Counted from the first letter of the stretch, positions 41,793-64,000 are shown. The stretch: DNA of 64,000 nt from Candidatus Kaiserbacteria bacterium (GCA_026713605.1 JAPOOC010000007.1:59418-123417), one strand, 5' to 3'. Made by a program: numbers and translations. The notes: generated by a model not told the origin, from the letters alone.

Positions 41793-41835
41793 ATCTTTCA
41801 TCGGCACCTCCCTCCCAGAGGTTCGGTGCCACTAC

Positions 41836-41868: not shown

Positions 41869-42091
41869 TACACTAAAAAACCTTGAAACAAAAGGACATT
41901 TTGAATATACGGGCTATACGGGTACACTACCGACAGGGTGCCAGCAAAACAATTTGACAAAATCTACTTAAAATGGTATATTATAAAAAGAAATCGCTTT
42001 CTGTGCGATCCATATAAAATAATACTCATCGTTATTTTATATGGGTCGCGCACATAACGGCGACTCAATAGTTTACAATTCAAAAAAAAAA

Positions 42092-42132
42092 CTCCCGCAA
42101 CAGCGGGAATAAATTCCCGCTGTTGCGGGGGA
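42092..42132. promoter_or_regulatory. ~19-bp GC-rich perfect hairpin immediately 5' of the SD of gene 42142 (A10 upstream, so also a terminator-like structure when read on the minus strand)
   Basis: CTCCCGCAACAGCGGGAA-TAAA-TTCCCGCTGTTGCGGGGG, then GAGGAAGAAAAATG. Confidence 0.5.
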
Positions 42133-42141
42133 GGAAGAAAA

Positions 42142-43902
42142 ATGAAATTTTTTTTAATGATTGTTGGCGTGGCATTAGTAATTTCCCCGTTCGCCTTGAA
42201 GGCGTGGAACGGGGAAGAGGTTCCCATCCCCGGACTCAACGGCCTCATTGAGGCCATCCGCGACGACGCCACCGAGGCCGACGAAGCAACCGAAGAGGCC
42301 ACTAAAGCGGCCGAGAGAGAGGGAGAACTTTCCTTCTCCCGCATGATGCTGGAGCGGGATGTGAAGCGGATTTCGGCGTTTGAGAACGCCGACGGGTACT
42401 TGGTTACCCGCAGCGACGAGGAGTACAAAGACCTCGCCGCCGCCCTCTCTCGCTTCCGCCTCACCTCTGATAGTGCCAAGAAGGCACTTGATGAGGCGAG
42501 GGGGAAGAGGGGGTACCCCCTCTTTTTCTCCATCGCCCTCGGCGAGGCGGTGGAGGAAGAACCCTTCCTCCAAGTTGTCGGAACGGCGACGATCGAGTGG
42601 TGCAGGTCACGAGAAGAGGCCTATCCGCTCCCCAAAGGTGTGAATTGGTTTACGGTCGGGGCGAACCCGCTCGTGACCCGCGGAGAAATCGAAACTCCCT
42701 CGTTCAGAACAATGAGGGAATTCGTCGCGGCGGAAATCGCTCCCATCGTCGACTCTGCCGACGGTGAGGCGTTAGTCGCCGCCGCAATAGCGGGGAGAAA
42801 GGCGGACCTCGAATTTTTCGGAGTCCAAACGGCCCCCGGGATCATGTCTGCCAAGATTTGGCGGACATATAAAGGGGAAACGGAGGAGCGCATCCCCGCG
42901 GTGCGGTTCCTCCCGTTCATAGAGTCGCGTGCAATCAGCACGCATCCGGCCCATGCCGAGGTGAGGTACAAGTTCGCCGAGGCAATAGACCTCGACCCCG
43001 ACCGCCTCGAAGAGGCGTTGAAGGGGGTGGTCGAAAAGACCGATTCCCGCCGGGCACTCGTCACCTACTGGCCACACCGGCAGGAGCTGAGGGTAGAAGT
43101 GCCCTCAGCATTCACCGACGTGGTGATACGTGTACTCTCTCCAGAGTCCTTGTGGAGAGAGGCCTACAGGGTCGCTTCGGCGACCATGGGCGTTCAGGCG
43201 TCCATCCCTGATCTTGAATTGGAGATCTTAGAAGACCTTGGTCGATATCATGTCGATCAGGGTAAGAAGATCCACCACCACGAGGACTTCCCCGAGAGGT
43301 TTGTGTGTTTGACGCAGGAGAGTAAGTCAGGTGTTGAGGGTAAGATTATTTCTTACCGAGACGCCCAAACACTCCTCCCACGGGAGGGAATCTTGAACGC
43401 TGCCCAACTGCAGGCAGCAATCCAACGAGTGTTGGATCAAGATCCTGAGAGGTCACATTTCGAGTTTGGGTGCCTCCAAACGAGAGAAGAGATCATGGAT
43501 CTCTTCTCTCAGTATCAGTCGGGTTTTGAAAACCCAGCTGACGCATTCCCGTGCCATATGGGATATGACTACACGACGCGTCGTGTAATCATGTTCCAGC
43601 GGATTCAGCAGGACAGACCTGCTGAAACTGCGGACGCCGTCGGGGGAGAGAAACCCTTGGCGTCATACGGAGTAAAAAACTTCAGCGAAAAATCTCTCAA
43701 GGAATTGAGAGAAATGATCGCTGAAGAACACGGAATCACCCTCGCCATCGACGGAGGCGAGGCGAGGTCCTTGGCCTTGAGTATAATAAAGGCCAAAGGT
43801 CTCCCCGTCAAGATACGGGGAGACAAAATTGAGGGCGGTCACGCCCTCATCCATGTAATTTCCTCAAAGAAAATTAGCATGGATGTGGTTGCAGATGAGT
43901 AG
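42142..43902 (+). CDS. Large secreted protein of unknown function
   Basis: Signal peptide MKFFLMIVGVALVISPFALKA; 586 aa; GC-rich; no recognised family. Confidence 0.6.
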   Translation: MKFFLMIVGVALVISPFALKAWNGEEVPIPGLNGLIEAIRDDATEADEATEEATKAAEREGELSFSRMMLERDVKRISAFENADGYLVTRSDEEYKDLAAALSRFRLTSDSAKKALDEARGKRGYPLFFSIALGEAVEEEPFLQVVGTATIEWCRSREEAYPLPKGVNWFTVGANPLVTRGEIETPSFRTMREFVAAEIAPIVDSADGEALVAAAIAGRKADLEFFGVQTAPGIMSAKIWRTYKGETEERIPAVRFLPFIESRAISTHPAHAEVRYKFAEAIDLDPDRLEEALKGVVEKTDSRRALVTYWPHRQELRVEVPSAFTDVVIRVLSPESLWREAYRVASATMGVQASIPDLELEILEDLGRYHVDQGKKIHHHEDFPERFVCLTQESKSGVEGKIISYRDAQTLLPREGILNAAQLQAAIQRVLDQDPERSHFEFGCLQTREEIMDLFSQYQSGFENPADAFPCHMGYDYTTRRVIMFQRIQQDRPAETADAVGGEKPLASYGVKNFSEKSLKELREMIAEEHGITLAIDGGEARSLALSIIKAKGLPVKIRGDKIEGGHALIHVISSKKISMDVVADE

Positions 43903-44163
43903 TTTCGTCTGCAATCCCACGCCCAACAGAGCGTGAACAGAATCTGTTATAGTTTGAGGGGTTCTATTAAAAAAACTCCTTCTATCGCAAACTGATACCG
44001 TTTGCCTGATGAGTCCATGGTAGGACGAAATAGATACATTGACAATCTTGGAAGCAGCATAGTCCACATATCATGATAGTACTACGGTCATGGTATGTGG
44101 GCTATGGTGCCCAAAAAAAACGCCGCCGAGGGTTTCGGTGGCATGATCTGGTTGAAGTTACAC

Positions 44164-44185
44164 CCCGGCTCCGCCGGGAAAGGAG
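44164..44185 (+). promoter_or_regulatory. Conserved 5'-UTR hairpin + SD motif (copy 1)
   Basis: CCCGGCTCCGCCGGG hairpin then AAAGGAG, ATG 6 nt later; near-identical to 48436-48457. Confidence 0.5.
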
Positions 44186-44191
44186 CAAAAA

Positions 44192-44743
44192 ATGAAAGGT
44201 TTAATTTTCATCATCACGGCAGCTATGGCACTGCTCATGACCACGGTCGCCGACGCAGAGTCGGCAAGTAGCATCTCGGTCTGGCGGGTAGAACCACCCG
44301 CCAAGGAAAAAACCAGAAAAACATACACCGTCCCTGAGACGGATGTTAATATCACGATCGAAGACAAGATCGTGGTTGAAAGTGGGGGCGTGGTGCTTGA
44401 CGCACCACGCCCAAAGGACCCGAAAGAAATGATACGGGTGACCGCAGACCTTACGGCTGCGGTCATGCAGCGGGTCGCCGTCAAAGCGGAGACGCCTCCC
44501 AAGGAGGAAACATCCCCTAAAGAGGTCCCAGCTGAGAAGGTGGAACCGACACCCACGGCCCCGGCAACTCCAAAGGTAGACGCTCGCGATAGCAGCGTCT
44601 ACTATGCCGAGGGGAATGTCAATGTGCACAACAACAATGTGCACATTGGCGGCGGGAAAGGGAAGCGGAAGATAACCGTCCGTCGGCGGTACTTCCGAAC
44701 TGAACCCGCCGTCCGGGGGTTTGGCGCAGTCGGGCTGCGCTAA
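44192..44743 (+). CDS. Secreted protein of unknown function
   Basis: Signal peptide MKGLIFIITAAMALLMTTVADA; Pro/Glu/Thr-rich linker; 183 aa. Confidence 0.55.
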   Translation: MKGLIFIITAAMALLMTTVADAESASSISVWRVEPPAKEKTRKTYTVPETDVNITIEDKIVVESGGVVLDAPRPKDPKEMIRVTADLTAAVMQRVAVKAETPPKEETSPKEVPAEKVEPTPTAPATPKVDARDSSVYYAEGNVNVHNNNVHIGGGKGKRKITVRRRYFRTEPAVRGFGAVGLR

Positions 44744-44760
44744 CCCGCAAGGTCTTTGAT

Positions 44761-44799
44761 GGCACCGATTCAGCAATGAATCGGTGCCATTTATTTTTT
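44761..44799 (+). terminator. Rho-independent terminator
   Basis: 12-bp stem GGCACCGATTCA-GCAA-TGAATCGGTGCC then ATTTATTTTTT. Confidence 0.85.
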
Positions 44800-44819
44800 A
44801 AGGGTGTATCCCACAAAAA

Positions 44820-44848
44820 TTGCCAAAACAGGAGAAGTGGGGTATAAT
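44820..44848 (+). promoter_or_regulatory. Candidate promoter for 44885 gene
   Basis: TTGCCA - 17 nt - TATAAT. Confidence 0.5.
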
Positions 44849-44884
44849 ATAAAGTAAATTGATGTTTACGAAGGGGGGAAGGAA

Positions 44885-45481
44885 ATGAAGTTCCTTGCAC
44901 TGCTACTAGCAATCTCCTCGCTATCATTTGCCAGCGCAGAAGCAAACGATAGCGCGGTGTTTCTAACGCTACCTGGCTTTGAGGAAAAAGTCGGTGTGGC
45001 GTTTGACGCGAAAGAGGTAGAGATGGTCGCAGTGTACCGTGGTAACAATCTCTACCTCCGCCCACTCAGCAGGAAATTGCGACTGCTGCTGGGAAAAGAA
45101 AAGGCAGTCGCCACCAAAACCCTCTCTCTGCCAAACCTCATCAGGGATGAGGCGGCACGAGGGAAGGGGGAAACCCCCGCACTGCTGATCTCCGAGCGGG
45201 CATTTGGTAAGCCCGCCGACACCTTCCTTTTGCGTGTGAAAGGGAAGGTGATCAGTGGGAGGTTTCCCAAGGAAAAGGGTAACCAGTCCCAAGTAGGGGT
45301 GGCACTCTTCATGGGGAAGAAAGGGGTGCACCTCTACTGCCTCTACGTCTCAGAAGAAAGTGTAGAGGTTAACTTCCGCACACTCACCGAGCGGCAGTAC
45401 AAAGCTGCGAAGAAGAGTGTTGCGGAGAAGTTGAAGGCCGCCGGGCAGAAAAAGGCGGCAAAAAAGGTGGGTGACCTTTAG
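44885..45481 (+). CDS. Secreted protein of unknown function
   Basis: Signal peptide MKFLALLLAISSLSFASAEA; 198 aa; strong SD GGGGGGAAGGAAATG. Confidence 0.55.
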   Translation: MKFLALLLAISSLSFASAEANDSAVFLTLPGFEEKVGVAFDAKEVEMVAVYRGNNLYLRPLSRKLRLLLGKEKAVATKTLSLPNLIRDEAARGKGETPALLISERAFGKPADTFLLRVKGKVISGRFPKEKGNQSQVGVALFMGKKGVHLYCLYVSEESVEVNFRTLTERQYKAAKKSVAEKLKAAGQKKAAKKVGDL

Positions 45482-48463: not shown

Positions 48464-49489
48464 ATGAAAACCTTCTTATTTTTCTGCCTCGCCGTGTCCC
48501 TAGGTGCATTCCTGGGGCTGTTCGACGGCGAGGCACCCACATCTCCCTCTCCCAGCAGGGAGGGGAGAATTGCCACCACCATCAAGAGAATTGAGCGGGT
48601 GGTGGTAAAGACAAGGCGTCAAAAAAAGGCGCCAGCAAAACTCCCTGCCAGCGAGCGGGGGGTAGTCGGTGCGGCCAAAAAGATAGGGCCGCACACCAGC
48701 ATCCCAGAAGAGGTGTTGGTGGGGATTGCCGAACAGGAAACACAGTTCGGCAAAAACTTCGGAAAAGCGGGGCGCGCGCTCAATCGCGCGCGCTCAATCA
48801 AGGAGCAAGCGCTCCTTGCGTTTGTCGCGGCGGAAAGAGGGGTGTCCATTGAGCAAATGGAGACATCCACTTCTGCGGCGTTCGGGCTGACACAGGCCAG
48901 ACCGTCGCTATATCTTGCCCATTGCGGGCTGGAGGTGCAGTTCGGAAAAACCCCAACCGTCCTTCTGCACGGGACACAGGCATACCGCAGTATGTCCCGC
49001 GCAGAAAGATCCGCTGGGATCAGAGAGATCCAGCGGAAGTTGGGGATGAAAAAAGTTGATGGGCTGATCGGCCCGTCAACATTAGAGGCGATCGAGGAAA
49101 AGGTCGGTCGCAGGGCTTTTGACAAGGTAGCGAAATACCTCCTGGTCAAAAAGTACTATGGTAACCACGTGAAATTGGTTACCAGCAAAGAGCGCGACAA
49201 GGTTTTTCAAAGAATCTGTCGCGCGGAAAGAAGAGATCCGGTGAGAACGAAGTATTTCTTGCCAGACCTCTGGAACCCGGTGCACGCTCTGGCATACACC
49301 AGCGTGCATCTGGAGGACGACCTCCGCATAGCGAAGAGATCGTCCAAGCGGGAAGATTCCGCAGTAGATGTGGCAATTGCCGCGTATTACTGTGGAATCA
49401 AATCTGCCCTGAACCGCAACCCTGACGGGCTGTGGTATCAGAGGCAAGTGAAGGCAAAGGCAGGGAAATTTAAAACTGTCTTTGCTTAA
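48464..49489 (+). CDS. Secreted cell-wall-associated protein with PG_binding_1-like peptidoglycan-binding domain
   Basis: Signal peptide; IREIQRKLGMKKVDGLIGPSTLEAI resembles PGBD helix-pair motif; 341 aa. Confidence 0.5.
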   Translation: MKTFLFFCLAVSLGAFLGLFDGEAPTSPSPSREGRIATTIKRIERVVVKTRRQKKAPAKLPASERGVVGAAKKIGPHTSIPEEVLVGIAEQETQFGKNFGKAGRALNRARSIKEQALLAFVAAERGVSIEQMETSTSAAFGLTQARPSLYLAHCGLEVQFGKTPTVLLHGTQAYRSMSRAERSAGIREIQRKLGMKKVDGLIGPSTLEAIEEKVGRRAFDKVAKYLLVKKYYGNHVKLVTSKERDKVFQRICRAERRDPVRTKYFLPDLWNPVHALAYTSVHLEDDLRIAKRSSKREDSAVDVAIAAYYCGIKSALNRNPDGLWYQRQVKAKAGKFKTVFA

Positions 49490-53154: not shown

Positions 53155-53392
53155 ACAACCTCCATGGGATTACTCCCGCTGGTTCCTAAGACCAGTGCGT
53201 CTACCCGCGCCGGCAATCTCTGATTGACGCTGACTATCAGTCGCCGCCTGTGGCGGAATTGCTTGTGCCGAGGAGAGGGCTTGAACCTCCATGGGATTAC
53301 TCCCGCTGGTTCCTAAAACCAGTGCGTCTACCCGTGCCGGCAATCTCTGATTGACGCTGACTATCAGTCGCCACCTGTGGCGGAATTGCTTG
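53155..53392 (-). repeat. Two tandem ~126-bp units, each = 3' two-thirds of tRNA-Leu(UAG) fused to a palindrome-bearing spacer
   Basis: Units at 53155-53206(+spacer) and 53266-53332(+spacer) match the anticodon/variable/T-arm/3' acceptor of the adjacent full tRNA but lack the 5' acceptor and D-stem; 4 SNPs between units. Confidence 0.8.
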
Positions 53393-53630: not shown

Positions 53631-53711
53631 GCCGGAGTGGCGGAACTGGTATACGCGCACGACTTAAAATCGTGTACCTCTGGTATGCGGGTTCGACTCC
53701 CGCCTCCGGCA
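53631..53711 (+). tRNA. tRNA-Leu (anticodon UAA), long variable arm
   Basis: GCCGGAG-TG-GCG-GAACTGGTATA-CGC-G-CACGA-CTTAAAA-TCGTG-variable-GCGGG-TTCGACT-CCCGC-CTCCGGC-A. Confidence 0.85.
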
Positions 53712-53961
53712 CTTGTTAGTTCCGCCACCCGTGGCGTCTAGTATTCTGCACCAATCAGAGATTGGTGGCACGGGTATACGCGCACGACTTAAAATCGTGT
53801 ACCTCTGGTATGCGGGTTCGACCCCCGCCTCCGGCACTTGTTAGTTCCGCCACCCGTGGCGTCTAGTATTCTGCACCAATCAGAGATTGGTGGCACGGGT
53901 ATACGCGCACGACTTAAAATCGTGTACCTCTGGTATGCGGGTTCGACTCCCGCCTTCGGCA
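53712..53961 (+). repeat. Two tandem ~120-bp units, each = conserved spacer + 3' two-thirds of tRNA-Leu(UAA)
   Basis: Spacer CTTGTTAGTTCCGCCACCCGTGGCGTCTAGTATTCTGCACCAATCAGAGATTGGTG then GCACGGGTATACGCGCACGACTTAAAATCGTG...CCTCCGGCA; second unit carries an acceptor SNP (CCTTCGGCA). Confidence 0.8.
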
Positions 53962-54125
53962 CAGCAAAAAACACCACACCCCCACAAAATTACTTCATTA
54001 ACAGCATCGTTTTCCCACCACCACCCTTTTCTCCATCCCACACTTCGCAAGGTAACAAAGCGGGGGATCACCACCTGTCCTCACTAGAACTTAGGTATAA
54101 TTTTCAATGTTATACTTTAAATATC

Positions 54126-55364
54126 ATGTCAGTTACTCAAGTGGGTGTAAAAACAGATGGTCAGAGATTCCTCTTTGGCGATGTTTATCCTGATCTAAGT
54201 GTGAAACCAAAAAATATTGAAACAGAAGGTATAAAATATATTGGTTCAAAAAAAGAGATACTTCCTAAAATTTTGCTAATACTTGCATTATTAAGAAAGC
54301 AAACCAGCATCAAAACTATTTTAGACGGCTTTTCTGGTTCAACGAGAGTCACGCAAATGCTAGCAAAAAGTGGTTTTGATGTACTATCAAACGATACTGC
54401 CATTTACTCAAGAATCTTTGCAGAATGTTATTTAATGACAAAGAAAAATAAAGAATATTATGCCAAGAAAATTGAAAAGTTAAATGTTTTAGAAGGTAAG
54501 AGCGGCTGGTTTTCAAAACATTACGGAGGAACTGATAATGACGGGTTGTCAGTGGGGGATGATGGAAAGAAAAAGATGTGGCAATTACATAATACAAAAA
54601 AGCTTGATGCAGTACTAGAAGCCATACATGCAGAACAAGATGAGCAGGATAAAAATGTACTCCTCACCTCCCTAATTTTAGGACTTGATAAGGTTGACAG
54701 CTCTCTCGGGCATCAAGTTTCGTATCTTAAAGAGTGGGCAAAGAGGTCTTATAATGAGTTAGCGTTAAAAGTTCCCAATTATTTTATCAACAGCGGGAAT
54801 CATGCGGTTTATAATAAAGACATTTTTGAATTAATTAATGAAATTGACGTTGATGTGGCGTATTATGATCCGCCCTACTGTTCAAATAATGAAAAAATGC
54901 CAGCATCGCGTGTCAGATATAATTCTTATTACCATATATGGACATCAATTTGTTTAAATGATATTCCAGAAGTTTTTGGCGCATGTAACCGAAGATTAGA
55001 TACCAGTGATAAAACGGCGATATCAGTATTTGAAGAATTTAGAAAAGATACAGAAACAGATGATTATATCACCACCTTGAAAATAAAGGAATTGATACAA
55101 AAAACTAGTGCAAAGTTTATTATATTCTCATATTCAAGCAGTGGTCGTACAGATAAAAAAAGTTTTAAAAGAATATTAAATGAGTTGGGATTAAATTTTT
55201 TATTCTATGAATTTAATTACAAAAAAAATATTATGCACGCCTTAAAGTCCACCAATGAATGGGTAAATGAGCAGGGGAATAGGGAATACTTGATTGTCAT
55301 AGATAAATATGGAGTGCTTGACTTGGAAAAAGTAGAAAAAGGATTAACATCCACACCTCTTTAA
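54126..55364 (+). CDS. Dam-family (D12 class, alpha-type) N6-adenine DNA methyltransferase
   Basis: N-terminal IKYIGSKKEILPKIL (Dam motif X), motif I ILDGFSGSTRV, motif IV YYDPPY; AT-rich codon usage; start trimmed from ORF-track 53838, which runs into the tRNA repeat array. Confidence 0.8.
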   Translation: MSVTQVGVKTDGQRFLFGDVYPDLSVKPKNIETEGIKYIGSKKEILPKILLILALLRKQTSIKTILDGFSGSTRVTQMLAKSGFDVLSNDTAIYSRIFAECYLMTKKNKEYYAKKIEKLNVLEGKSGWFSKHYGGTDNDGLSVGDDGKKKMWQLHNTKKLDAVLEAIHAEQDEQDKNVLLTSLILGLDKVDSSLGHQVSYLKEWAKRSYNELALKVPNYFINSGNHAVYNKDIFELINEIDVDVAYYDPPYCSNNEKMPASRVRYNSYYHIWTSICLNDIPEVFGACNRRLDTSDKTAISVFEEFRKDTETDDYITTLKIKELIQKTSAKFIIFSYSSSGRTDKKSFKRILNELGLNFLFYEFNYKKNIMHALKSTNEWVNEQGNREYLIVIDKYGVLDLEKVEKGLTSTPL

Positions 55365-56129
55365 AAACCTTTTTAATTCTGACTCACCAAAAAGAGATAG
55401 TTCTTTTATGGCCAATAAAAATTTTTGGTTCACCTCATACTCTCCTTCAAAGAGTACATCCAAAATATCTTTCGCTTTATGTGTTTTTGTCCAGATACCT
55501 CTTTGTAATGCATTTGCTGTAGTTCCACCATATCTTGCTTCAAATATATAATTTCCTTTTGCATCCAAAAATTCATATATCGGATGCTTCCTTCTTCCGT
55601 TGGGATTAACTTTTTTAATTTTGCTCAACTTTCTTAACGCCGCATCCGTGTCAATAACGCACACCCTAAACCTGTTTTCCTTTTGATTATATAGAAAACA
55701 TAAAACATGTATGGCAAGAAGTTCCTTCAAAATAGGCAGAACAGATTTTTTATCCACCCGTTTCTTTTCCGCAGAAAGTTTTGATAATTTGTTAAACAAC
55801 CTATTTTCTTTATCCGTTCTTATCTGCAACGGACCATTGTCACCATAATTTTTAAGCGACAGGAAAAACTTCTTGCCAGACCTCTTCTCTTGTATCTCCA
55901 AATCCTCTTCACTTTCTTTTGCTCTGAATTTCTCTTTTCCTATATGTGTTGAATTAAATTTTGTTAAATATTTATTTATGTAATGGTCAAACAAAACTTC
56001 AGCCATGTCGCCGTGTGTCTTATTACCAAACTCCCTGAAAGAAAATATATTGTTAAAAAATGTATCACTTTTTGGATTTTCTCTGAAGTTTTTCTTTAAT
56101 TCTGTAAAAAAATTCATAAAATAAACCAC
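55344..56129 (-). CDS. Hypothetical protein convergent with and overlapping the MTase 3' end; candidate cognate type II restriction endonuclease
   Basis: 261 aa, Lys-rich, AT-rich; 21-bp 3' overlap with MTase; possible D...(D/E)xK-like segment (VIDTDAALRK) but not verified. Confidence 0.35.
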   Translation of the reverse strand: MVYFMNFFTELKKNFRENPKSDTFFNNIFSFREFGNKTHGDMAEVLFDHYINKYLTKFNSTHIGKEKFRAKESEEDLEIQEKRSGKKFFLSLKNYGDNGPLQIRTDKENRLFNKLSKLSAEKKRVDKKSVLPILKELLAIHVLCFLYNQKENRFRVCVIDTDAALRKLSKIKKVNPNGRRKHPIYEFLDAKGNYIFEARYGGTTANALQRGIWTKTHKAKDILDVLFEGEYEVNQKFLLAIKELSLFGESELKRFLKRCGC

Positions 56130-56142
56130 TTACCCTACAAGG

Positions 56143-56441: not shown

Positions 56442-56490
56442 CGCGCAAAATACCGCAAAAATGAGGGGTGTGTGGTGTATACTGGCAAAG

Positions 56491-57210
56491 ATGGCAGGAA
56501 CAGTATATGTAGTCGGAACACCAATTGGAAATCTGGGAGATATGACAACGCGGGGGGTGGAGACACTGCAAAAAGTAGATACTATATTTTGTGAAGACAC
56601 CCGCGTAACAAAAAAATTATTAGCACGCTACAAGATTGACACATCGTGTGTGTCATACCACTCGTTTAGCGGATTTGGGAAAATCGCGCAGGCAATCAAA
56701 TTGTTACAGCAAGAAAAAGATATCGCACTTGTCTCTGATGCCGGCACACCGACCATCTCAGATCCGGGGGTAAAGCTTGTTCGACACATTCGTGAGAAGC
56801 TGGGTGAAGCAACAGACATTCGCACCGTACCCGGCGCGTCAGCGGTCACCGCCGCACTGTCTATTTCCGGCGCACCAAGCTCATCATTTTTGTTCTTGGG
56901 ATTTCTCCCGCGCAAAAAAGGACGCAAAACACTTTTTAAAGAAATTGCCGAAGAAAAACGAACAGTCGTATGCTACGAAGCGCCGCACCGACTACTCAAA
57001 ACCCTCACCGCACTACAGGAGTCCCTAGACCCCACCCGAGAAGTCATCGTCGCCCGGGAGATGACGAAAGTATACGAACAGGTTATCACCGGAACAGCAG
57101 CAGAAGTGTTGGCGCACTACACAACACACTCAGACGAGGTACGCGGCGAGGTCGTAATCATTATTTCTGGCTTACACAGGACGCAAAGTGTGCAAAAGTT
57201 TCGCAGGTGA
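56491..57210 (+). CDS. rsmI: 16S rRNA (cytidine1402-2'-O)-methyltransferase RsmI
   Basis: Tetrapyrrole-methylase fold N-terminus VYVVGTPIGNLGDMTTRGVETLQKVDTIFCEDTR; start trimmed to MAGTVYVV. Confidence 0.8.
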   Translation: MAGTVYVVGTPIGNLGDMTTRGVETLQKVDTIFCEDTRVTKKLLARYKIDTSCVSYHSFSGFGKIAQAIKLLQQEKDIALVSDAGTPTISDPGVKLVRHIREKLGEATDIRTVPGASAVTAALSISGAPSSSFLFLGFLPRKKGRKTLFKEIAEEKRTVVCYEAPHRLLKTLTALQESLDPTREVIVAREMTKVYEQVITGTAAEVLAHYTTHSDEVRGEVVIIISGLHRTQSVQKFRR

Positions 57211-57237: not shown

Positions 57238-58209
57238 ATGAACAAAAGGAAGAGAGGCGGAAGGAGGGAAAGAGGCACCACCACCGCTCTCCGCATGCCA
57301 AATAGCGAGCGAAGGGTTCCAGTTGAAAACCCAGACAGGAACAAAAAGCAAAAGGAGGAGAAGCAGGATACCACCCGCAAGCAAGAGGAGTTAGGAGCAG
57401 AGGTATTTTTTGAAAAGCATGGGAGCAAAATATACATAAAGCCGCAAGGTTTTTTCAGGATACGAGAAAAGTGGGATGCTGCCCGCAAGGAATATGCAAA
57501 GGGAGGCAGGGAAGTGGAGCACCTCCTAAAGCAGTTTCCCAAGTGGGTAAGGAATATTCACAACCTCCCCGAAACGCTCAAGCCACTCATACAGAATGAA
57601 GAGAGCGACCATGAGGATTTTCTATACTTCCTGCAAAAACAAGGATTTATCAATCCCGAAAATATAGAGCAGTTTCTTGAGAAAGAGAGCGAGGAGGCAA
57701 AGCAGGAAGCATGCATAGAAAAAGAGTTGCAGGAAATGGAAAGAAAAAGGGCTGAGGAAGAAGAGAAGAAAGAGCGGGCGGAGATGCTGAAAAGAAAAAT
57801 TTTGGAAGAATTAACGGAAACATACTTTGTGCAACCAAAAGAAGTATATATAACCGAACACCCACCATACGCAAGCCCAAACATTGTTCGGATCGACAGG
57901 GATAAGTGGGGAAAAGAGATGCCTGAGTGGGGGAGGATACAGGACATCGCAACAACCACCAGATCTATATACACAGAAGCGGTCATTGTGGGGGATGCCG
58001 TGCATATCATGGACATCAACCAGTACGGCACAGGACTAGACGCAATAGATGCCTTCGCTGCCGACCATGAGGGAGGCAAGTTTGTCACTTTGCATTTCTA
58101 CGAAAAAGGGGAGACAGTACGAGAGACCCGTACCGCCACAAGATTCAAAGAAACGCACTCCTCTTTAATCATTCACGACCCAGAAGCACACATCAGTGGT
58201 AAGGAATGA
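57238..58209 (+). CDS. Hypothetical Lys/Glu-rich protein
   Basis: Basic N-terminus (KRKRGGRRERG), central coiled-coil-like KE-rich region; 323 aa; no family recognised. Confidence 0.45.
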   Translation: MNKRKRGGRRERGTTTALRMPNSERRVPVENPDRNKKQKEEKQDTTRKQEELGAEVFFEKHGSKIYIKPQGFFRIREKWDAARKEYAKGGREVEHLLKQFPKWVRNIHNLPETLKPLIQNEESDHEDFLYFLQKQGFINPENIEQFLEKESEEAKQEACIEKELQEMERKRAEEEEKKERAEMLKRKILEELTETYFVQPKEVYITEHPPYASPNIVRIDRDKWGKEMPEWGRIQDIATTTRSIYTEAVIVGDAVHIMDINQYGTGLDAIDAFAADHEGGKFVTLHFYEKGETVRETRTATRFKETHSSLIIHDPEAHISGKE

Positions 58210-58243
58210 GGAATACAAAATGATTACGGTATACTAAACTTGT

Positions 58244-58441
58244 ATGATACATCGCCTCATATTCATCACAAGCGTTTTATTACTATCATTTCCATTCGTG
58301 GGAGTGCCGGGGGAATGGAAGGTGTGGGTGGCATTCGGAATAGGAACGCTCTTTTTCATATACTCCATTTACAGCGCGACACAGCATATCTCCGAAAAGG
58401 AGGTAGAGAGTAACACAGAAACAAGCACTGAAAAAAAATAA
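58244..58441 (+). CDS. Small two-TM membrane protein
   Basis: 65 aa, two hydrophobic helices, stop 6 nt before the ATPase gene start. Confidence 0.4.
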   Translation: MIHRLIFITSVLLLSFPFVGVPGEWKVWVAFGIGTLFFIYSIYSATQHISEKEVESNTETSTEKK

Positions 58442-58447
58442 TAACAT

Positions 58448-61090
58448 ATGGCATACGATCCTGAAAGAATAGTAAATATAGGGGAATTAGAGAAGCGGGG
58501 AAAGACCGTGTGCTTCGGCATCAAGGAAAAAGATCGGTCACGCCACATCTATGTCATCGGGCAAACAGGTACCGGTAAATCAACACTGCTGGAGATGCTA
58601 GCAATGCAAGACATTCGTAACGGCACGGGACTGATTTTTATGGATCCGCACGGACAATCAGTTGAAGCACTGCTGAACTATGTAACCCATGAACATATGG
58701 ACAAAATTATTTACTTCGCGCCACAGCATCAGGAGAAACCAATCGGGCTGAATATCATGGAAGACATCGGGTACGACAAGCGACACCTGGTAGTAAGCAG
58801 TTTGATGGCATCGTTTGAAAAAATTTGGGGAGCAGGCACATGGTCAGACCGAATGGCGTATATTCTGCAGAACACCCTACTTGCGCTGATTGAGTACCCG
58901 GACACAACATTGCTTGATGTGGGACGGATGTACTCCAGCAAAGATTTTCGTGAAAAGGTGGTCGCCAACCTAAAAGACCCGCAGGTACGAAAATACTGGG
59001 TTGAGGAATTCGCAAACTATACAGAGCGGTACGCACAGGAAGCAACGCCCTCCATTCAGAACAAACTCGGGCAATTCACCTCCAATCCACTGATGCGAAA
59101 TATTATCGGGCAAAAAGAATCAGCATTTAATTTTCGGGAACTGATGGACGAGGGGAAGATACTGCTGGTGAACTTATCAAAAGGACAGATTGGTGAAAAT
59201 AACGCGCGCATGCTCGGTGTGCTGTTTACAACAAAGATCTATCTGGCGGCACTGTCAAGAAGTGATATGACGAAAGCAGAGCTGGAGGCAGCAAATCCCT
59301 GCAACTTCTTTGTTGACGAGTTTCAATCATTCGCAAACTCATCCTTTTCCGACATTCTTTCCGAGGCGCGAAAGTATAAGTTGAACCTCATAATGGCACA
59401 CCAATATCTAGGACAACTCTATTCTGACGATTCCGGGAGCGGTGACGCGATTCGGGATGCGGTATTCGGCAATGTGGGAACCTTTGTGTCTTTCCGAGTC
59501 GGTCCAGTTGATGCGGAGATTATTGCAAAACAGTTTGCGCCAGATATCATGGAGGAAGATTTGGTCGCATTGCCGAGATACCACATATATCTCACGCTGA
59601 ATATTGATGGCGCAGGGTCCATGCCGTTCTCCGCAAGAACTTTTTATGAACCAGCACCAGAAAATGAGTCACTGGAGCAAGAAGTAATACAGCGGACGAT
59701 GGACACCTACGGCGTGGATCGGGAGATAGTAGAAAAGTTGGTTGAAGACAACCTTGCAGAAGATGCTCGCGCGAGCGAAGCGGAAAAGAAAGGCGGGCAA
59801 AAAGGAGGGAAGCAGCAAGGGTGGGGGAAGAAGTCAGGAGGAGGAGGCAACGCAAAAGGCGGGCAGAAGCAACAGGGCGGGCAGAAAGGAGAGGAAAATC
59901 ACATGCCACTAAAAGGACTACTGCAACAAGCGATACAGCAACAAGGGACAGCAAAACCAAAAAAACAGATTGAGCGAAGTACGGAAAACAAAAAAGTTAC
60001 AGAAAGGCAGAAAGCCATGCCAGTCAGCATGCTCAAAACAGAGGGTGAGAGCAAAGAAGTAGGGCAGGAAAAAGGCGAAGAGCAGGATGAAAAACAAAAG
60101 AAGCCACTACTCGGAAAACTGTTCACCCGCAAAAGTGCGACACAGGAGGAAACAGGAGAAAAGACAGACAGAGATACAGCACCGCCAGCGGCAAGAGAGC
60201 AACAACCACCAGTAAAACAAGTACAAACAAAAACACCTCCTCAAAGACCAGAGCAAGAGAGGGACAAGCAAGGCGCAGAACACCGACAGCAAAGACAAAA
60301 ACCAAACAGAGAACAAGACCCTAAGCCGCCAGCAAGAGACGAGCCACAGATGCGCAATCCGAAATCACAGAAACCAGTCCGCAGAGGGCAGGGCAGGCAG
60401 GAAGAACAAGCGCCAAAAGAAATCACCCAAAAACACACGCAAAACAACAACACCGAAAGACCACGAAGACCAAGAGCCAGGCGCACTGACCAAAGAGAAA
60501 AAACCACCACGCGTCACGCCAAGCAACAAGAGAGGTCGCACGAACTACAACAGAAGAGCAGAGAGGTCGCCAGAGGGGAAAAAAATAGCCCACAAGGCCA
60601 AAAAAAGCAACACGAAAGAAGAAGGAGGAGTGGAGAAAAAAATACAAAACAGCAAAACACCCCACAAAAATCAACCATACCGGCAACAAGGCAGAAAAAA
60701 AACAAATCTGCAAAGATACACGAAAAAAGCGACACACCAAACCGTCAGGAAAAGAGCAGAGAACACGCACCACAGCAACGGGCAGAAAAACAGCCACAGC
60801 CAGCCAGCCAGGCGCAACGACTACCATCTGGCGTACTGACCGGCACGGTATCACGAAGCATGGCGACACAGCAAAACGCAGAAAATAAGCAACAAGAAAC
60901 ACCGCAACAGCAGAACAGACCACAGCCAATCAACACGAATGGCGGGCTGGGTGACCTCGTGAAATCAGCAAAAGCAAGCGGACTACGAAAAGACCTCAAG
61001 GTCGCTCCAAAAAAAGAAAAACAAGCACCACCAGTTAGCTACGAAGAGGGCTGGGTCGCCATCGGCGACCTCAGTAAAGTTCCCGAATAA
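58448..61090 (+). CDS. VirD4/TraG-like (FtsK/HerA superfamily) P-loop ATPase with ~400-aa disordered K/Q/E/R-rich C-terminal tail
   Basis: Walker A VIGQTGTGKSTLL, Walker B FFVDEFQSF, conserved AHQ...; no N-terminal TM; tail is low complexity (GGQKGGKQQGWGKK..., QERDKQGAEHRQQRQKP...). Confidence 0.6.
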   Translation: MAYDPERIVNIGELEKRGKTVCFGIKEKDRSRHIYVIGQTGTGKSTLLEMLAMQDIRNGTGLIFMDPHGQSVEALLNYVTHEHMDKIIYFAPQHQEKPIGLNIMEDIGYDKRHLVVSSLMASFEKIWGAGTWSDRMAYILQNTLLALIEYPDTTLLDVGRMYSSKDFREKVVANLKDPQVRKYWVEEFANYTERYAQEATPSIQNKLGQFTSNPLMRNIIGQKESAFNFRELMDEGKILLVNLSKGQIGENNARMLGVLFTTKIYLAALSRSDMTKAELEAANPCNFFVDEFQSFANSSFSDILSEARKYKLNLIMAHQYLGQLYSDDSGSGDAIRDAVFGNVGTFVSFRVGPVDAEIIAKQFAPDIMEEDLVALPRYHIYLTLNIDGAGSMPFSARTFYEPAPENESLEQEVIQRTMDTYGVDREIVEKLVEDNLAEDARASEAEKKGGQKGGKQQGWGKKSGGGGNAKGGQKQQGGQKGEENHMPLKGLLQQAIQQQGTAKPKKQIERSTENKKVTERQKAMPVSMLKTEGESKEVGQEKGEEQDEKQKKPLLGKLFTRKSATQEETGEKTDRDTAPPAAREQQPPVKQVQTKTPPQRPEQERDKQGAEHRQQRQKPNREQDPKPPARDEPQMRNPKSQKPVRRGQGRQEEQAPKEITQKHTQNNNTERPRRPRARRTDQREKTTTRHAKQQERSHELQQKSREVARGEKNSPQGQKKQHERRRRSGEKNTKQQNTPQKSTIPATRQKKNKSAKIHEKSDTPNRQEKSREHAPQQRAEKQPQPASQAQRLPSGVLTGTVSRSMATQQNAENKQQETPQQQNRPQPINTNGGLGDLVKSAKASGLRKDLKVAPKKEKQAPPVSYEEGWVAIGDLSKVPE

Positions 61091-61454: not shown

Positions 61455-64000
61455 ATGATTGAAAAAAAGGGTGAAAATCGGGAGACGGTCGCTAGTCGGG
61501 AAGAGCGGATGTTACGATTTTGGCGGGAACATGCCATTTTTGAAAAAAGTGAGGGAAGAGAGAAAAAAACTTTGTTACAGCGAGTGGTGCAGAGCATAGT
61601 GCCAAAAAGGAAATTTATATTCTACGACGGCCCACCATTTGCAACCGGACTGCCACATTTCGGCAATATTTTGGCAAGTATTGTGAAAGATGCAGTGCCA
61701 CGGTACAAGACCATGCGGGGATATCAGGTGCGTCGCCGATGGGGGTGGGATTGCCATGGGTTACCACTTGAGGTGGAGATGGAAAAAAAAATCGGCACCA
61801 AAACAAAGCGAGATATTGAGGAGTATGGCATAGAACAATTCAACCGTGGTATCCGAGACACCATTTTCACCTATGCGGATGAGTGGAAAAAAATTATTCC
61901 ACGAATTGGTCGGTGGGTGGATATGGATAACGATTATCGCACACTCAACACGGCATACATAGAGTCAGTGTGGTCGGTATTCCGTCGGCTGCATACCCGC
62001 GGGTTCGTGAGTAATGGTTTTAAATCATTGCATCTCTGCCCCCGATGCTCAACCGCCATCTCAAATGCAGAAGTTGCAGATAATTATGAGGCACTGACTG
62101 ATACGGCGGTCTATGTTCTGTTCCCGCTGAAGGATGATTCGAACACACACCTCGTCGCATGGACGACAACACCATGGACGCTATTCGGCAATGTCGCCCT
62201 CGGTGTAGATGAAAAGATGGAATACACCGTCATAGAAAAAGAGGGAAAGAAATACATCCTCCACCAAAGTGCAGCAGACAACATAGACGGCGGCACTGCC
62301 ACAGGAACAAAAAAAGGGTCTGAATTAATCGGGAAAGAGTACCTGCCACCATTTGACTATCTCTACGCCAAAGATGAAGAGTTGGTGAAAGCAAAGTTAT
62401 GGCGAGTGCAAAAAGTATCGTACATTGAGGAGGAGGTCGGCACTGGCATTGTGCACCTCGCCCCGGCATACGGAGCGGAAGATATGGAAACCGCACGGCA
62501 AGAAGGGTTGCCAATTCGACATCACATCACAAAAGATGGCGAGTTTATGCCACAAATAGAAGGGTACGCCGGCTTGCGCCCCAAAGAAGCAGGAAACCCA
62601 AAAACAGTGGATGAAAAAATACTGCAAGATTTACAAAATAAAGAACTATTGCTCCGCAGTGAGCCAATAGAACACACCTATCCGGTGTGCTGGCGCTGTA
62701 AAACACCCCTCCTAAACTACGCTGCGAATTCGTGGTTTGTGCATGCAGAGCAATATAAAAACCGCATGGTAGCAGAAAACAAAAAGGTTAGTTGGGTACC
62801 AAAACACATCCGAGATGGCCGATTTGGCAACTGGCTGAGTGATGCGCGGGAATGGGCAGTATCCCGAGACCGCTTTTGGGGCGCACCGATACCAGCGTGG
62901 AAGGTTGAGAAAACAGGAGAACACATTATTGTCGGATCGTTAGAAGAGATGTTCCAAAAAATGCGACCAAGAAATCAGTACTTGTTTGTACGGCACGGAC
63001 AATCAGTAAGCAATGAGAAAGGTGTGCTGAACTGCAAAAAAGAAGCTGGTGACGGACTGACCGAAAAAGGAAAAGAGCAGGCGGCAGAAACCGCACGAAA
63101 ATTAAAAGATAAAAAACCAACAGTGATTTTTTACTCACCCCTGACTCGTACACGAGAAACAGCAGAATACATCGCAAAAGAAACCGGCGCAAAAATGATT
63201 GAGGAGCCACTACTGACTGAATTACAGGTGCCGAGTATGCACAATCGACCAGTGCGTGAGTTATGGAAAGAGATTCGTGAAGCCGGCGCATTCCGTGATC
63301 TCAGTAGAAACATAGACGGCGGTGAATCATTTGTAGAGGTGTATGAGCGGATACTACAATTTTTTGAAAAGGTGGATCAACAGTATAAAGACACAAACAT
63401 TGTGGTGGTCACACACCGTGCAGTTATCAATATGGCACGCTCAATCGCGCCGACACACGACCTGTTCAAGAAGCGCTACAAGAAGAACACTATACTCAAG
63501 TCAACCAACAATGCAAGCATGCACACTATTCGTTACACACATATACAACGCGATGAAAACAAAGAAGTTGACCTGCACCGACCATATATTGACGAAGTGG
63601 TGCTGTATGACACGGACGGAAACCCAGCATATCACACCAAGGAGGTGTTTGACTGCTGGTTTGAATCAGGTGCAATGCCATACGGGTCACATCACTACCC
63701 GTTTGAGAATACATGGTCATTCAACCCAACCTTGCGACGCGGCTTCCCAGCGCATTTCATTTGTGAAGGGTTAGATCAAACTCGCGGGTGGTTTTACAGT
63801 TTGATGGCAATCGGTGTAGGGGCATTTGATCAAGCACCATACCGCAAAGTAATAGTAACCGGCTTAATTCGCGCTGCAGACGGAAAGAAGATGAGCAAAA
63901 GTTTGCAGAACTATACTGACCCGATGAAACTCATTGAACAATACGGAGCAGATGCACTACGGCACTATCTCCTCGGTTCGCCAGTAGTGCGCGGAGAAGA
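61455..64000 (+). CDS. ileS: Isoleucine--tRNA ligase (type 2, eukaryote-like), 3' end outside window
   Basis: Hand translation: FYDGPPFATGLPHFGN (HIGH region), WDCHGLP, zinc motif YPVCWRCKTPL, KMSKS at 63888; absent from the ORF track because there is no in-window stop. Confidence 0.9.
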   Translation, partial: MIEKKGENRETVASREERMLRFWREHAIFEKSEGREKKTLLQRVVQSIVPKRKFIFYDGPPFATGLPHFGNILASIVKDAVPRYKTMRGYQVRRRWGWDCHGLPLEVEMEKKIGTKTKRDIEEYGIEQFNRGIRDTIFTYADEWKKIIPRIGRWVDMDNDYRTLNTAYIESVWSVFRRLHTRGFVSNGFKSLHLCPRCSTAISNAEVADNYEALTDTAVYVLFPLKDDSNTHLVAWTTTPWTLFGNVALGVDEKMEYTVIEKEGKKYILHQSAADNIDGGTATGTKKGSELIGKEYLPPFDYLYAKDEELVKAKLWRVQKVSYIEEEVGTGIVHLAPAYGAEDMETARQEGLPIRHHITKDGEFMPQIEGYAGLRPKEAGNPKTVDEKILQDLQNKELLLRSEPIEHTYPVCWRCKTPLLNYAANSWFVHAEQYKNRMVAENKKVSWVPKHIRDGRFGNWLSDAREWAVSRDRFWGAPIPAWKVEKTGEHIIVGSLEEMFQKMRPRNQYLFVRHGQSVSNEKGVLNCKKEAGDGLTEKGKEQAAETARKLKDKKPTVIFYSPLTRTRETAEYIAKETGAKMIEEPLLTELQVPSMHNRPVRELWKEIREAGAFRDLSRNIDGGESFVEVYERILQFFEKVDQQYKDTNIVVVTHRAVINMARSIAPTHDLFKKRYKKNTILKSTNNASMHTIRYTHIQRDENKEVDLHRPYIDEVVLYDTDGNPAYHTKEVFDCWFESGAMPYGSHHYPFENTWSFNPTLRRGFPAHFICEGLDQTRGWFYSLMAIGVGAFDQAPYRKVIVTGLIRAADGKKMSKSLQNYTDPMKLIEQYGADALRHYLLGSPVVRGE

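Follow-up and report, generated by a model that had tools for sequence, protein, structure and literature searches.

We analysed a 64,000-nucleotide stretch of DNA from a Candidatus Kaiserbacteria bacterium (the window). The locus under study comprises three ORFs downstream of rsmI. The features are:

36895–39821, plus strand: four VirB2-like ORFs matching Pfam T4SS_pilin (PF18895), about 19–20 kb upstream of the ATPase module with no physical linkage to it; context only
56461–57210, plus strand: rsmI (TP_methylase; Pfam E 1e-35), upstream neighbour; context only
57238–58209, plus strand: KE-rich hypothetical ORF, 323 aa (locus tag OXB96_01895)
58244–58441, plus strand: two-TM hairpin protein ORF, 65 aa (MCY4577166.1)
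58448–61090, plus strand: orphan VirD4/TrwB-like (T4CP-family) ATPase ORF, 880 aa, with Pfam and NCBIfam matches; identical to MCY4577167.1 of a Ca. Kaiserbacteria MAG

A sequence-only reading of this DNA had described the three ORFs, the ATPase motifs, a missing N-terminal TM segment, a 6-nt gap and a low-complexity tail, and we found all of these where it had placed them. The gap separates the stop of the 65-aa ORF, which ends at 58441, from the ATPase ATG at 58448. An identical 880-aa protein is encoded on 6 contigs, three of which each derive from a different sample. The pilin cluster that had been reported ~20 kb from the ATPase also exists: of its four PF18895-matching ORFs, those at 36895–37275 and 39468–39821 score above the Pfam cut-off, and the other two score below it (23.0 and 20.7 bits, with a cut-off of 26.6 bits).

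We asked whether the ATPase could be the genuine conjugation coupling protein of an integrated mobile element (ICE). Its T4CP homology, the occurrence of plasmid relatives in conjugation modules, and a low-GC restriction-modification island and duplicated tRNA genes 2–5 kb upstream of the locus would fit such an origin. However, the island stops before tRNA-Tyr and L33; the GC content of the locus (0.46–0.47) equals the genome background; and the flanking genes (L33, rsmI, an IleS-like synthetase and recO) are housekeeping genes without mobile-element character. Moreover, rsmI lies upstream of the ATPase in 34/60 related loci, across classes, and no relaxase, integrase or VirB4 is encoded nearby. 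We therefore consider a mobile-element origin highly improbable.

An ATPase of the VirD4/TrwB type without a membrane anchor

The following features lie in the N-terminal half of the ATPase:

58448–59782, plus strand: ATPase core, P-loop domain, aa 1–445, without a TM domain
58559–58582, plus strand: Walker A, GQTGTGKS, aa 38–45
58772–59149, plus strand: all-alpha insertion in the nucleotide-binding domain, aa ~109–234, at the position of the T4CP all-alpha domain
59306–59326, plus strand: Walker B, FFVDEFQ, aa 287–293

The 880-aa protein is a member of a T4CP-like, VirD4/TrwB-related ATPase family found on Patescibacteria chromosomes. This family is already annotated and published, and NCBI names MCY4577167.1 a type IV secretion system DNA-binding domain-containing protein. 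The core passes the Pfam cut-offs for DUF87 (37.8 bits) and, over aa 27–351, for TrwB_AAD_bind (29.9 bits, cut-off 20.5 bits), and the VirD4-like NCBIfam model CD1115 aligns to aa 27–347. TrwB and VirD4 are nearest by sequence, the VirB4/TrwB/HerA group is nearest by fold, and TrwB was the sole PDB family matched by sequence or profile. These matches support the earlier view of the N-terminal part as an ATPase of the VirD4 type; top matches to an unrelated ATPase family, named beforehand as the outcome that would count against it, did not appear in the structural and profile comparison.

The core has an FtsK/HerA-superfamily P-loop with intact Walker A, Walker B and downstream elements. Across 21 homologues, Walker A is invariant at its G, T, G, G, K and S residues, and FFVDEFQ is likewise invariant, as are SEARKY (aa 305–310) and AHQY (aa 317–320) downstream of it. 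Walker B and these two stretches align with TrwB FIDELASL and GRKAGLRVVAGLQ. An all-alpha domain of the T4CP type is predicted within the nucleotide-binding domain, since DSSP on the AF2 model (pLDDT 82.6) gives eight helices between strands 87–90 and 238–242; alignments with TrwB cover 420–440 columns and include this region. Nevertheless, the ATPase is only 15–18% identical to TrwB (R388) and VirD4, lacks their N-terminal two-TM domain, and has no relaxase or T4SS encoded alongside it. There is no N-terminal TM anchor: Walker A is reached already at residue 38, and the maximum 19-residue Kyte-Doolittle hydropathy is 0.96, indicating no TM segment.

Other identities were rejected. The ATPase shows neither the build of a VirB4, a protein of ~800 aa with an N-terminal domain ahead of the ATPase domain, nor a match to VirB4 profiles. 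Neither the N-terminal HAS barrel nor the NurA, Sir2 or DUF4297 partner of a HerA DNA-repair or defence helicase was found. FtsK and SpoIIIE are DNA translocases of the same superfamily, and FtsK carries a long Pro/Gln-rich linker; their combination of N-terminal TM domain, alpha/beta motor and gamma DNA-recognition domain is not seen here. As for a HerA-type ATPase of anti-phage defence, in a MADS-like system or as Sir2-HerA, the missing barrel and effector partner, together with the lack of other MADS, Dnd or Sir2 genes in the window or related loci, leave it next to no standing; unlike genes of defence islands, the ATPase is near-universal in the phylum and has a fixed housekeeping synteny.

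A disordered tail that ends in a conserved module

The remainder of the protein contains the following features:

59783–61087, plus strand: disordered basic Q/K/E/R/P/G-rich tail, aa 446–880, delimited by composition, disorder measures and AF2
59900–59929, plus strand: conserved island 1, HMPLKGLLQQ, aa 485–494, 80% identical in four close relatives
60941–61072, plus strand: C-terminal module, aa 832–875 (~45 residues), consisting of GGLGDLVKSAKASGLRKDLKVAPKK, a short spacer and PPVSYEEGWVAIGDL; 64–84% identical in close relatives

Composition, hydropathy and AF2 pLDDT agreed with the earlier description of a low-complexity disordered tail, which is 435 aa long. Residues 446–880 contain 15% Q, 13% K, 10% E, 9% R, 8% P and 8% G; the fraction of charged residues is 0.35, just 10% are hydrophobic, and the net charge over aa 451–879 is +43. 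Mean hydropathy is 0.294, compared with a Uversky boundary of 0.449, and AF2 pLDDT is below 50 from residue 449 on. The strings GGQKGGKQQGWGKK and TPPQRPEQERDKQ are present as they had been quoted. The many spurious overlapping ORFs noted over the tail are also real as ORFs, and are accounted for by its DNA, which is 44% A and 6% T; stop codons are consequently rare in all six frames (1.2–2.5 per 100 codons, as against 2.5–5.6 in the core).

The tail is truly coding, because no stop interrupts its frame before a C-terminal module well conserved in close relatives, whereas the fast-evolving mid-tail is only 9–24% identical between them. In the four close relatives that share the HMPLKGLLQQ island, the tail flanking it is 9–54% identical. 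The C-terminal module is probably a partner-docking motif. Distant homologues across the phylum have related motifs at their C-terminal ends, e.g. E[VI]PE..L[RK].[IL][FL] or LERMMRVT; its motifs were not found in other ORFs of the 64-kb window.

TrwB has no counterpart to the 435-aa tail. Among coupling proteins, the C-terminal extension of F-plasmid TraD binds TraM, and that of Legionella DotL binds adaptor proteins. Any likeness to these extensions would be one of arrangement: the tail is much longer, polycationic and Q-rich, it shares no sequence similarity with them, and there are no TraM-like or adaptor genes near the ATPase.

A near-universal family in Patescibacteria

We found >8,000 homologues of the ATPase, and GTDB species genomes yielded no fewer than 598 loci. 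All organism-named records among the 80 loci kept are from Patescibacteria, and only 2 relatives were found among 2.9 million viral contigs. The family is so far almost confined to Patescibacteria, and its members are 48–58% identical across classes. Both unusual properties of the protein extend to its relatives. A TM domain is absent from all 196 relatives examined, since Walker A lies at residue ~35–45 in most of them, and a disordered tail is present in all 196. Tail length varies from 35 to 661 aa (median 158), 90% of the tails are net positive, and the tail described here is the second longest.

A phylum-wide survey (Quinonero-Coronel et al. 2025, PMC12102498) reports VirD4-type homologues in 2,918/3,035 Patescibacteria genomes (96%) and VirB4 in 80%, from which it follows that some genomes have one without the other. 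In the same survey, only 148/5,713 T4CP homologues lie near virB4, and relaxases are rare (109 homologues in 103 genomes). The homologues described there resemble this ATPase in being chromosomal, far from virB4 and with no relaxase nearby, and nothing categorical sets it apart from them. The absence of a TM domain, the universal tail, the C-terminal module and the 2-TM/DUF4015/lamin-tail-domain (LTD) neighbourhood were not found discussed in the portion of the survey consulted. The survey also states that the T4CP homologue of S. epibionticum was not found essential, whereas other T4SS genes were, and that its authors keep exaptation as a possibility for the T4CP homologues. With about two homologues per genome, redundancy could account for the nonessential homologue.

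Conserved neighbours of the ATPase are envelope and housekeeping genes

The sequence-only reading had treated the three genes as one module. This view did not hold for related loci: relatives of the KE-rich protein number only 5 among 5.8 billion proteins, all in one narrow clade, and the 2-TM gene is usually coupled to a gene for a DUF4015 glycosyl-hydrolase-like protein. The three-gene arrangement is mostly an accident of local gene order.

The 65-aa protein has hydrophobic segments at aa 1–23 and 26–43 (peak 19-residue Kyte-Doolittle hydropathy 2.05). It passes no Pfam cut-off, and belongs to a family of conserved small proteins with a PF.G.P..WK turn, as judged by its match to an HMM built from 19 relatives (E 1.8e-9). 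Of the 60 loci that offer 3 kb or more of sequence upstream of the ATPase, 29 have a member of this family there, on the same strand. In ~21/31 family-bearing loci a DUF4015 gene comes next, in many cases overlapping by 4 nt, and the ATPase lies another 1.2–2 kb downstream; the family directly abuts the ATPase in only six loci. A conserved gene order is Mur ligase, rsmI, 2-TM, DUF4015, ATPase, LTD/PKD protein and several GT4 glycosyltransferases. Another clade instead has secDF, a sigma-like gene, a gene for a 440-aa 2-TM protein and the ATPase, followed by pgk, recJ and rnh. The conserved neighbours are cell-envelope and housekeeping genes, without secretion genes. DUF4015 and LTD neighbours of the ATPase were not found in this window. 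Some ~8.6 kb downstream there is one faint match to LTD.

Such neighbours raise the possibility that the ATPase descended from a coupling protein and now has a T4SS-independent housekeeping function, either as a DNA translocase at the membrane or division site, for which the soluble translocase SftA of B. subtilis is comparable, or as part of an envelope unit. In the latter variant, its partners would be the 2-TM protein, a DUF4015 hydrolase-like protein and the LTD surface protein. For both variants, the C-terminal module would do the docking. The greater prevalence of the homologues than of VirB4, and their near-complete separation from virB4 in the survey, argue for an exapted ATPase, as do the level of identity across classes, the conserved gene order and the near-absence from viral contigs. 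On the other hand, no T4CP-type ATPase is known to work in envelope glycan or wall processes, a gene order kept in reduced genomes may just mirror vertical inheritance, and this window lacks the DUF4015 and LTD neighbours. Furthermore, TM7x has a gene annotated ftsK (PMC10768705), so a replacement for FtsK is unneeded, and the S. epibionticum result argues against a core role. We regard exaptation of this kind as possible, if doubtful.

The 2-TM protein as a possible detached membrane domain

An alternative view of the small gene is that the coupling protein is split, the 65-aa protein being a detached N-terminal membrane domain that binds and anchors the ATPase. TrwB was crystallised without its N-terminal membrane region (TrwB-deltaN70), and the 65-aa protein is about the size of that region; its topology would be a two-TM N-in/C-in hairpin, as in TrwB. 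The 6-nt gap to the ATPase start, the same-strand upstream position in nearly half of the 60 loci, and the persistence of the 2-TM gene with the DUF4015-ATPase pair even in loci where rsmI is missing are consistent with a split protein, and the conjugative plasmid pIP501 offers a precedent in TraI and TraJ, where the small 2-TM TraI is proposed to anchor the TM-less TraJ (PMC12857230). TraJ shows that accepted T4CPs without a TM anchor of their own exist, and by description its core is soluble like that of the ATPase, the small two-TM TraI being its proposed anchor. However, the genes for TM-less coupling proteins of Gram-positive systems belong to conjugation operons, next to those for a relaxase and a probable VirB4, whereas the Patescibacteria ATPase is orphaned, chromosomal and tailed. 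The frequent intervention of DUF4015, the rarity of direct adjacency to the ATPase, and the absence of the 2-TM family from about half of the loci, including one whole clade with a different upstream 2-TM protein, argue against a fixed pair. A split coupling protein thus seems quite unlikely.

A possible link to a secretion system

The sequence-only reading had proposed a unit of a conjugation- or competence-like DNA transport system, and had pointed to VirB4 and a relaxase as genes to look for. Neither these nor other T4SS core genes are encoded in the 64 kb of the window or in a further 10 kb. In 79 related loci, ClpB was the only other large Walker-A protein within ±7 kb of the ATPase, and no second ATPase of the family was found there. 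Hence, the usual association of a T4CP with a T4SS (virB4) or relaxase is not seen in the window and its 10-kb extension or in the 79 loci. Of the transport proposal, the VirD4/TrwB-type core stands; nearby T4SS genes and a conserved module do not.

A link to a secretion system is nonetheless plausible. A plasmid relative from B. subtilis (412 aa, DUF87), with neither tail nor TM domain, matches 89% of the core at 28% identity. Its gene neighbours encode a replication-relaxation protein, a protein of conjugal transfer and an ATP-binding protein of 746 aa, which is probably VirB4-like, judged by its size and position. This context ties the ATPase lineage to Gram-positive (single-membrane) conjugation systems. 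In addition, the T4SS cluster of S. epibionticum has no recognisable coupling protein (PMC10633639), and VirB2-like pilin genes are present in the window itself.

Proposed role of the ATPase

The explanation that we favour, with a probability of roughly 45%, is that a T4CP-like ATPase docks in trans through its tail and serves the chromosomal T4SS-like apparatus of Patescibacteria. By analogy with TrwB, the core would most likely be a ring ATPase that spends ATP on passing a polymer, either protein or DNA, to a membrane channel. Since it has no TM domain, it has to be recruited to its site in trans. We infer that the ~45-residue C-terminal module, together with the HMPLKGL island, binds a partner that is itself conserved throughout the phylum, while the long polycationic tether would set the reach and may also bind nucleic acid or an anionic membrane surface. 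Its destination is most likely the chromosomal T4SS-like apparatus, whose genes lie elsewhere in the genome and which would have its own VirB4 and VirB2-like pilins and no coupling protein in its cluster.

In the single species tested, epibiotic growth depends on this apparatus, and the presence or absence of a coupling ATPase matters for the question of whether its cargo is DNA or protein. The locus shows the sole candidate: a soluble, phylum-conserved ATPase whose disordered tether has a conserved, putative docking module at its end. The ~45-residue peptide is also a handle for fishing out the partner, whose identity would tell T4SS service from another use.

Against a coupling role stand the lack of T4SS linkage, the wider occurrence of the homologues than of VirB4, the rarity of relaxases, the housekeeping neighbours and the S. 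epibionticum homologue not found essential. The near-universal, TM-less, tailed ATPase might instead be the motor of a Patescibacteria-specific core machine, which we think unlikely; recruited by its C-terminal docking motif, such a motor could act with the 2-TM/DUF4015/LTD genes or as a soluble DNA translocase. If true, these ultrasmall epibiotic bacteria would be a clear example of the co-option of a conjugation ATPase for cell-autonomous purposes.

For the favoured T4SS coupling role, the 65-aa protein is a tentative candidate for a membrane tether, by analogy with TraI for TraJ, and the KE-rich gene would be a clade-specific passenger without an assignable role. The KE-rich protein contains 15% E, 10% K and 8% R, with a disordered basic N-terminus (aa 1–52), a long helix (aa 140–196) and a C-terminal alpha/beta domain.

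Three adjoining genes, one for a VirD4/TrwB-like ATPase

The three ORFs described in the sequence-only reading are all present and adjoin one another, and each has an exact match in a Candidatus Kaiserbacteria MAG.

57238-58209, + strand: KE-rich ORF, 323 aa (ORF call; OXB96_01895)
58244-58441, + strand: two-TM ORF, 65 aa (ORF call; MCY4577166.1)
58448-61090, + strand: ATPase ORF, 880 aa (ORF call; MCY4577167.1), with Walker A GQTGTGKS at aa 38-45 and Walker B FFVDEFQ at aa 287-293

As had been noted, 6 nt separate the stop codon of the 65-aa ORF from the ATG of the ATPase, which has both Walker motifs and no N-terminal transmembrane (TM) segment. NCBI already names the ATPase 'type IV secretion system DNA-binding domain-containing protein'. 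Hydrophobic segments are absent from the ATPase, where 19-residue hydropathy peaks at 0.96, and number two in the 65-aa protein. A promoter and terminator scan of 56.1-61.7 kb does not inform operon structure, because its counts were no higher than those in shuffled sequence.

Pfam profiles DUF87 (37.8 bits) and TrwB_AAD_bind (29.9 bits) matched the ATPase above their cut-offs, with TraG-D_C slightly under; NCBIfam matches were weak (TraD, CedD and the VirD4-like CD1115, the last over aa 27-347). The sole solved structure found by sequence was TrwB (E 2.5e-4 with the single sequence, 2.3e-5 with a 21-sequence profile), in an alignment that takes in the P-loop and the stretch of Walker B / RK / Q. 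In the AF2 model for aa 1-466 (pLDDT 82.6), eight helices are inserted at aa ~109-234 into a RecA-like core, and a Foldseek search with this model placed TrwB at the top (E 4e-12, TM-score 0.59-0.65), followed by HerA, Cag-beta, DotL and VirB4. This ranking therefore places the ATPase in the VirB4/VirD4/HerA branch, which is as far as the fold alone goes; sequence profiles tip the assignment toward VirD4/TrwB. Hence the N-terminal region best matches TrwB and not an ATPase family unrelated to transport. Replacement of FtsK was rejected, given the weak fold match and the presence in TM7x of a gene that is already annotated ftsK (PMC10768705). PADLOC mad8 matches the ATPase, but the partner genes of a defence-system HerA are absent, making a defence role highly improbable.

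A variable disordered tail with a conserved end

Residues 446-880 form a low-complexity tail (Q 15%, K 13%, E 10%, R 9%, P 8%, G 8%) with a net charge of +43 for aa 451-879 and just 10% hydrophobic residues. The tail lies deep in the natively unfolded zone of a charge-hydropathy plot, and AF2 confidence drops sharply from residue 449; composition, plot and model confidence together confirm the disorder proposed earlier. The spurious overlapping ORFs along the tail are also present, and are explained by base composition, since 44% A and 6% T make stop codons rare in all frames. The tail is truly coding, because its frame is open to a C-terminal module kept in relatives with an unalignable mid-tail, and because the identical 880-aa protein is called on six contigs (the three shown are from three different samples).

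All 196 relatives compared have tails (minimum 35 aa, median 158, maximum 661), the 435-aa tail of the window ATPase being the second longest. K, P, E, S, A, R and Q abound in the family tails, which are net positive in 90% of these 196 proteins. Relative to four close relatives, the core is 82-92% identical and the mid-tail 9-24%, and two tail segments are conserved.

aa 485-494: tail island HMPLKGLLQQ, 10 residues, 80% identity to the four close relatives
last 44 residues: C-terminal module, GGLGDLVKSAKASGLRKDLKVAPKK, spacer, PPVSYEEGWVAIGDL, 64-84% identity to the four close relatives

Distant members end in related acidic-hydrophobic motifs, e.g. E[VI]PE..L[RK].[IL][FL], LERMMRVT..DRPP and EELKKIL; strict C-terminal patterns match 133 of the 196, and the remaining members mostly have visible variants. 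Tail length shifts fast from species to species (whole proteins of 758, 766, 811, 833, 880, 947 and 1106 aa). The sequence-only reading had proposed to look for tail-length variation in population data; within the population of the window the sequence is fixed, with the identical 880-aa protein on all six contigs. The longest of these proteins, the 1106-aa homologue on the Ca. Paceibacterota chromosome OY764332.1 (L001; 92% identical), owes its tail growth to a perfect in-frame 369-bp tandem repeat of 2.9 copies (11723-12788). The repeat is a recent lengthening of the disordered tail or, with lower probability, an artefact of assembly; the window ATPase tail has no tandem repeats of note. From these comparisons, the architecture is therefore that of a variable disordered tether with conserved docking-type motifs at its end. 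The C-terminal motif is not common to FtsZ, whose end differs, and the tail motifs occur in no other window ORF.

An orphan family of Patescibacteria chromosomes

Searching with the core returned more than 8,000 proteins; most of the best matches carry no source name, and among the matches listed those with a name are nearly all from Patescibacteria, one being labelled Alphaproteobacteria. With each GTDB species represented by one genome, a scan gave at least 598 loci, and all those with a named group among the 80 kept belong to Patescibacteria (Paceibacteria, Saccharimonadia, Gracilibacteria and others), with identities of 48-58%. Twenty-one diverse family members share 125 invariant positions. 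Absence of a TM domain is a family trait, since Walker A sits at about residue 35-45 in most members. Within 7 kb on either side, none of 79 related loci has a paralogous ATPase, or any large Walker-A protein except ClpB. We consider the assignment of the ATPase to a Patescibacteria orphan family resembling type IV coupling proteins (T4CPs) secure.

The window is ordinary Patescibacteria chromosome, its other genes including pilB, ruvABC, a penicillin-binding protein gene, dnaK/J, two RNase J genes, rpoD, ftsA/Z, gyrA, IF-2 and clpB. This housekeeping context, together with the finding of only 2 relatives of the ATPase among 2.9 million viral contigs, argues strongly against a phage or mobile-element origin, which we regard as very unlikely. 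The best plasmid-borne relatives are 27-37% identical. A 412-aa relative with neither tail nor TM domain is encoded on 24-28 kb B. subtilis plasmids, beside genes for a replication-relaxation protein, a conjugal transfer protein and an ATP-binding protein of 746 aa, which we take to be VirB4-like. This arrangement fits descent of the ATPase family from conjugation systems of the Gram-positive (single-membrane) type, an origin also proposed for Patescibacteria VirB4. On one such plasmid (L089; CP121709.1, 7974-15362) the four genes stand in one row; MOB-suite classes these small plasmids as non-mobilizable, and the row looks like a compact conjugation module missed by typing.

Gene neighbourhood

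Upstream of the ATPase, a low-GC restriction-modification island is followed by tRNA-Tyr, L33, rsmI, the KE-rich gene and the 2-TM gene; downstream lie a minus-strand ORF of 71-77 aa, an IleS-like synthetase with a His_Phos_1 insert, and recO. Only five relatives of the KE-rich protein were found among 5.8 billion proteins. A mean column identity of 66% across the five sequences marks the KE-rich ORF as a real gene. The two relatives that were placed on their contigs have rsmI on one side and an ATPase gene (833 or 947 aa) on the other; the gene is absent from L001. The KE-rich protein matches no family, and its fold matches are limited to single helices.

An HMM for a small 2-TM family with a PF.G.P..WK turn picks up the 65-aa protein (E 1.8e-9); the family is present in 29 of 60 loci with at least 3 kb of upstream sequence. 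In ~21 of 31 loci having this family the next gene encodes a membrane-anchored DUF4015 glycosyl-hydrolase-like protein, frequently with a 4-nt overlap, and the ATPase comes after it; the 2-TM gene abuts the ATPase in only six loci, the window and L001 included. The 2-TM protein may be a split membrane anchor of the ATPase, but its tighter coupling to DUF4015 makes this less probable. Thus the three genes adjoin as described, but the proposed module does not hold as a general unit, with a KE-rich protein of five relatives and a 2-TM protein mostly beside DUF4015. The widespread arrangement runs from Mur ligase(s) through rsmI, 2-TM, DUF4015, ATPase and LTD/PKD membrane protein to several GT4 glycosyltransferases; in a second clade the order is secDF, a sigma-like gene, a 2-TM ~440-aa protein, ATPase, pgk, recJ, rnh and lepA. 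No homologues of the 440-aa, DUF4015 or LTD proteins were found in the window.

In Niyogibacteria, Nealsonbacteria, Yanofskybacteria and relatives (loci L068 and L070-L079), the conserved ~440-aa protein replaces the 2-TM/DUF4015 pair directly upstream of the ATPase, mostly with gaps of a few nt. Its N-terminal region is hydrophobic, with two TM helices by eye, and its large soluble domain has no Pfam match; it is a candidate membrane partner.

Possible role of the ATPase

The ATPase belongs to a known, published family, and only its tail length is unusual in this copy. Quinonero-Coronel et al. (2025, PMC12102498) found 5,713 VirD4-type T4CP homologues, spread over 2,918 of the 3,035 Patescibacteria genomes surveyed and only in 148 cases near virB4, with VirB4 in 2,417 genomes and relaxases in 103. 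They note that in S. epibionticum other T4SS genes were found essential and the homologue was not, and therefore leave exaptation possible. An essential T4SS cluster without recognisable coupling and relaxase proteins has also been reported (Wang et al., 2023, PMC10633639).

The sequence-only reading had proposed a docking unit for DNA transport, complementing a pilin cluster.

36.9-39.8 kb (36895 onward): four VirB2-like ORFs, Pfam T4SS_pilin PF18895, two above and two below cut-off

Its VirD4/TrwB-type ATPase stands, but no VirB4, VirB6 or relaxase was found in the window or the 10 kb downstream. We favour, at a probability of roughly 45%, a soluble ring ATPase whose tail motifs would bring it in trans to the T4SS-like apparatus encoded on the chromosome. 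An exapted, T4SS-independent role ranks second and is a real if less probable possibility, suggested by a wider distribution of the ATPase family than of VirB4, by the lack of essentiality, and by synteny with envelope and housekeeping genes. The family-wide tail architecture and conserved C-terminal module, of which we found no description in the accessible parts of the literature, are useful leads and not the discovery of a new kind of system.

Other observations

An Amidase_2 gene (37684-38319, - strand) interrupts the run of VirB2-like ORFs, which is followed at 40230-45481 by signal-peptide/membrane ORFs without Pfam matches (GC up to 0.52-0.54) and at 48464-49489 by an SLT-like transglycosylase. 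The VirB2-like and downstream ORFs may represent the surface portion of the T4SS-like system of Patescibacteria, apart from virB4. At 25850-27646 (- strand), a 598-aa protein without a Pfam match has hydrophobic, probably membrane-spanning N-terminal segments and a long Ala/Glu-rich probable coiled coil; the gene accounts for a local GC peak of 0.57.

A 125-nt unit of tRNA-Leu(taa) plus spacer occurs in three tandem copies at 53635-54009 (100%, 96% and 68% identity); ARAGORN calls all three as tRNA-Leu and Rfam accepts the first only. Positions 53300-53342 copy the 3' portion of tRNA-Leu(tag) at 91%. Immediately past the tRNA cluster, a low-GC island (54000-56130; GC 0.337, ~0.46 elsewhere) contains two genes.

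about 54120-55364, + strand: D12-class N6-adenine DNA methyltransferase
55344-56129, - strand: convergent 261-aa ORF, no Pfam match

These are probably an acquired type II restriction-modification pair; the island is present in two of the contigs with the identical ATPase (L083, L084) and absent from two related contigs (L081, L082). The IleS-like protein, a class I aminoacyl-tRNA synthetase of 1169 aa (window ~61460-64000, running past the window end; L083 13008-16517), is interrupted midway by a histidine-phosphatase domain (His_Phos_1, PF00300), as is its relative in L081.
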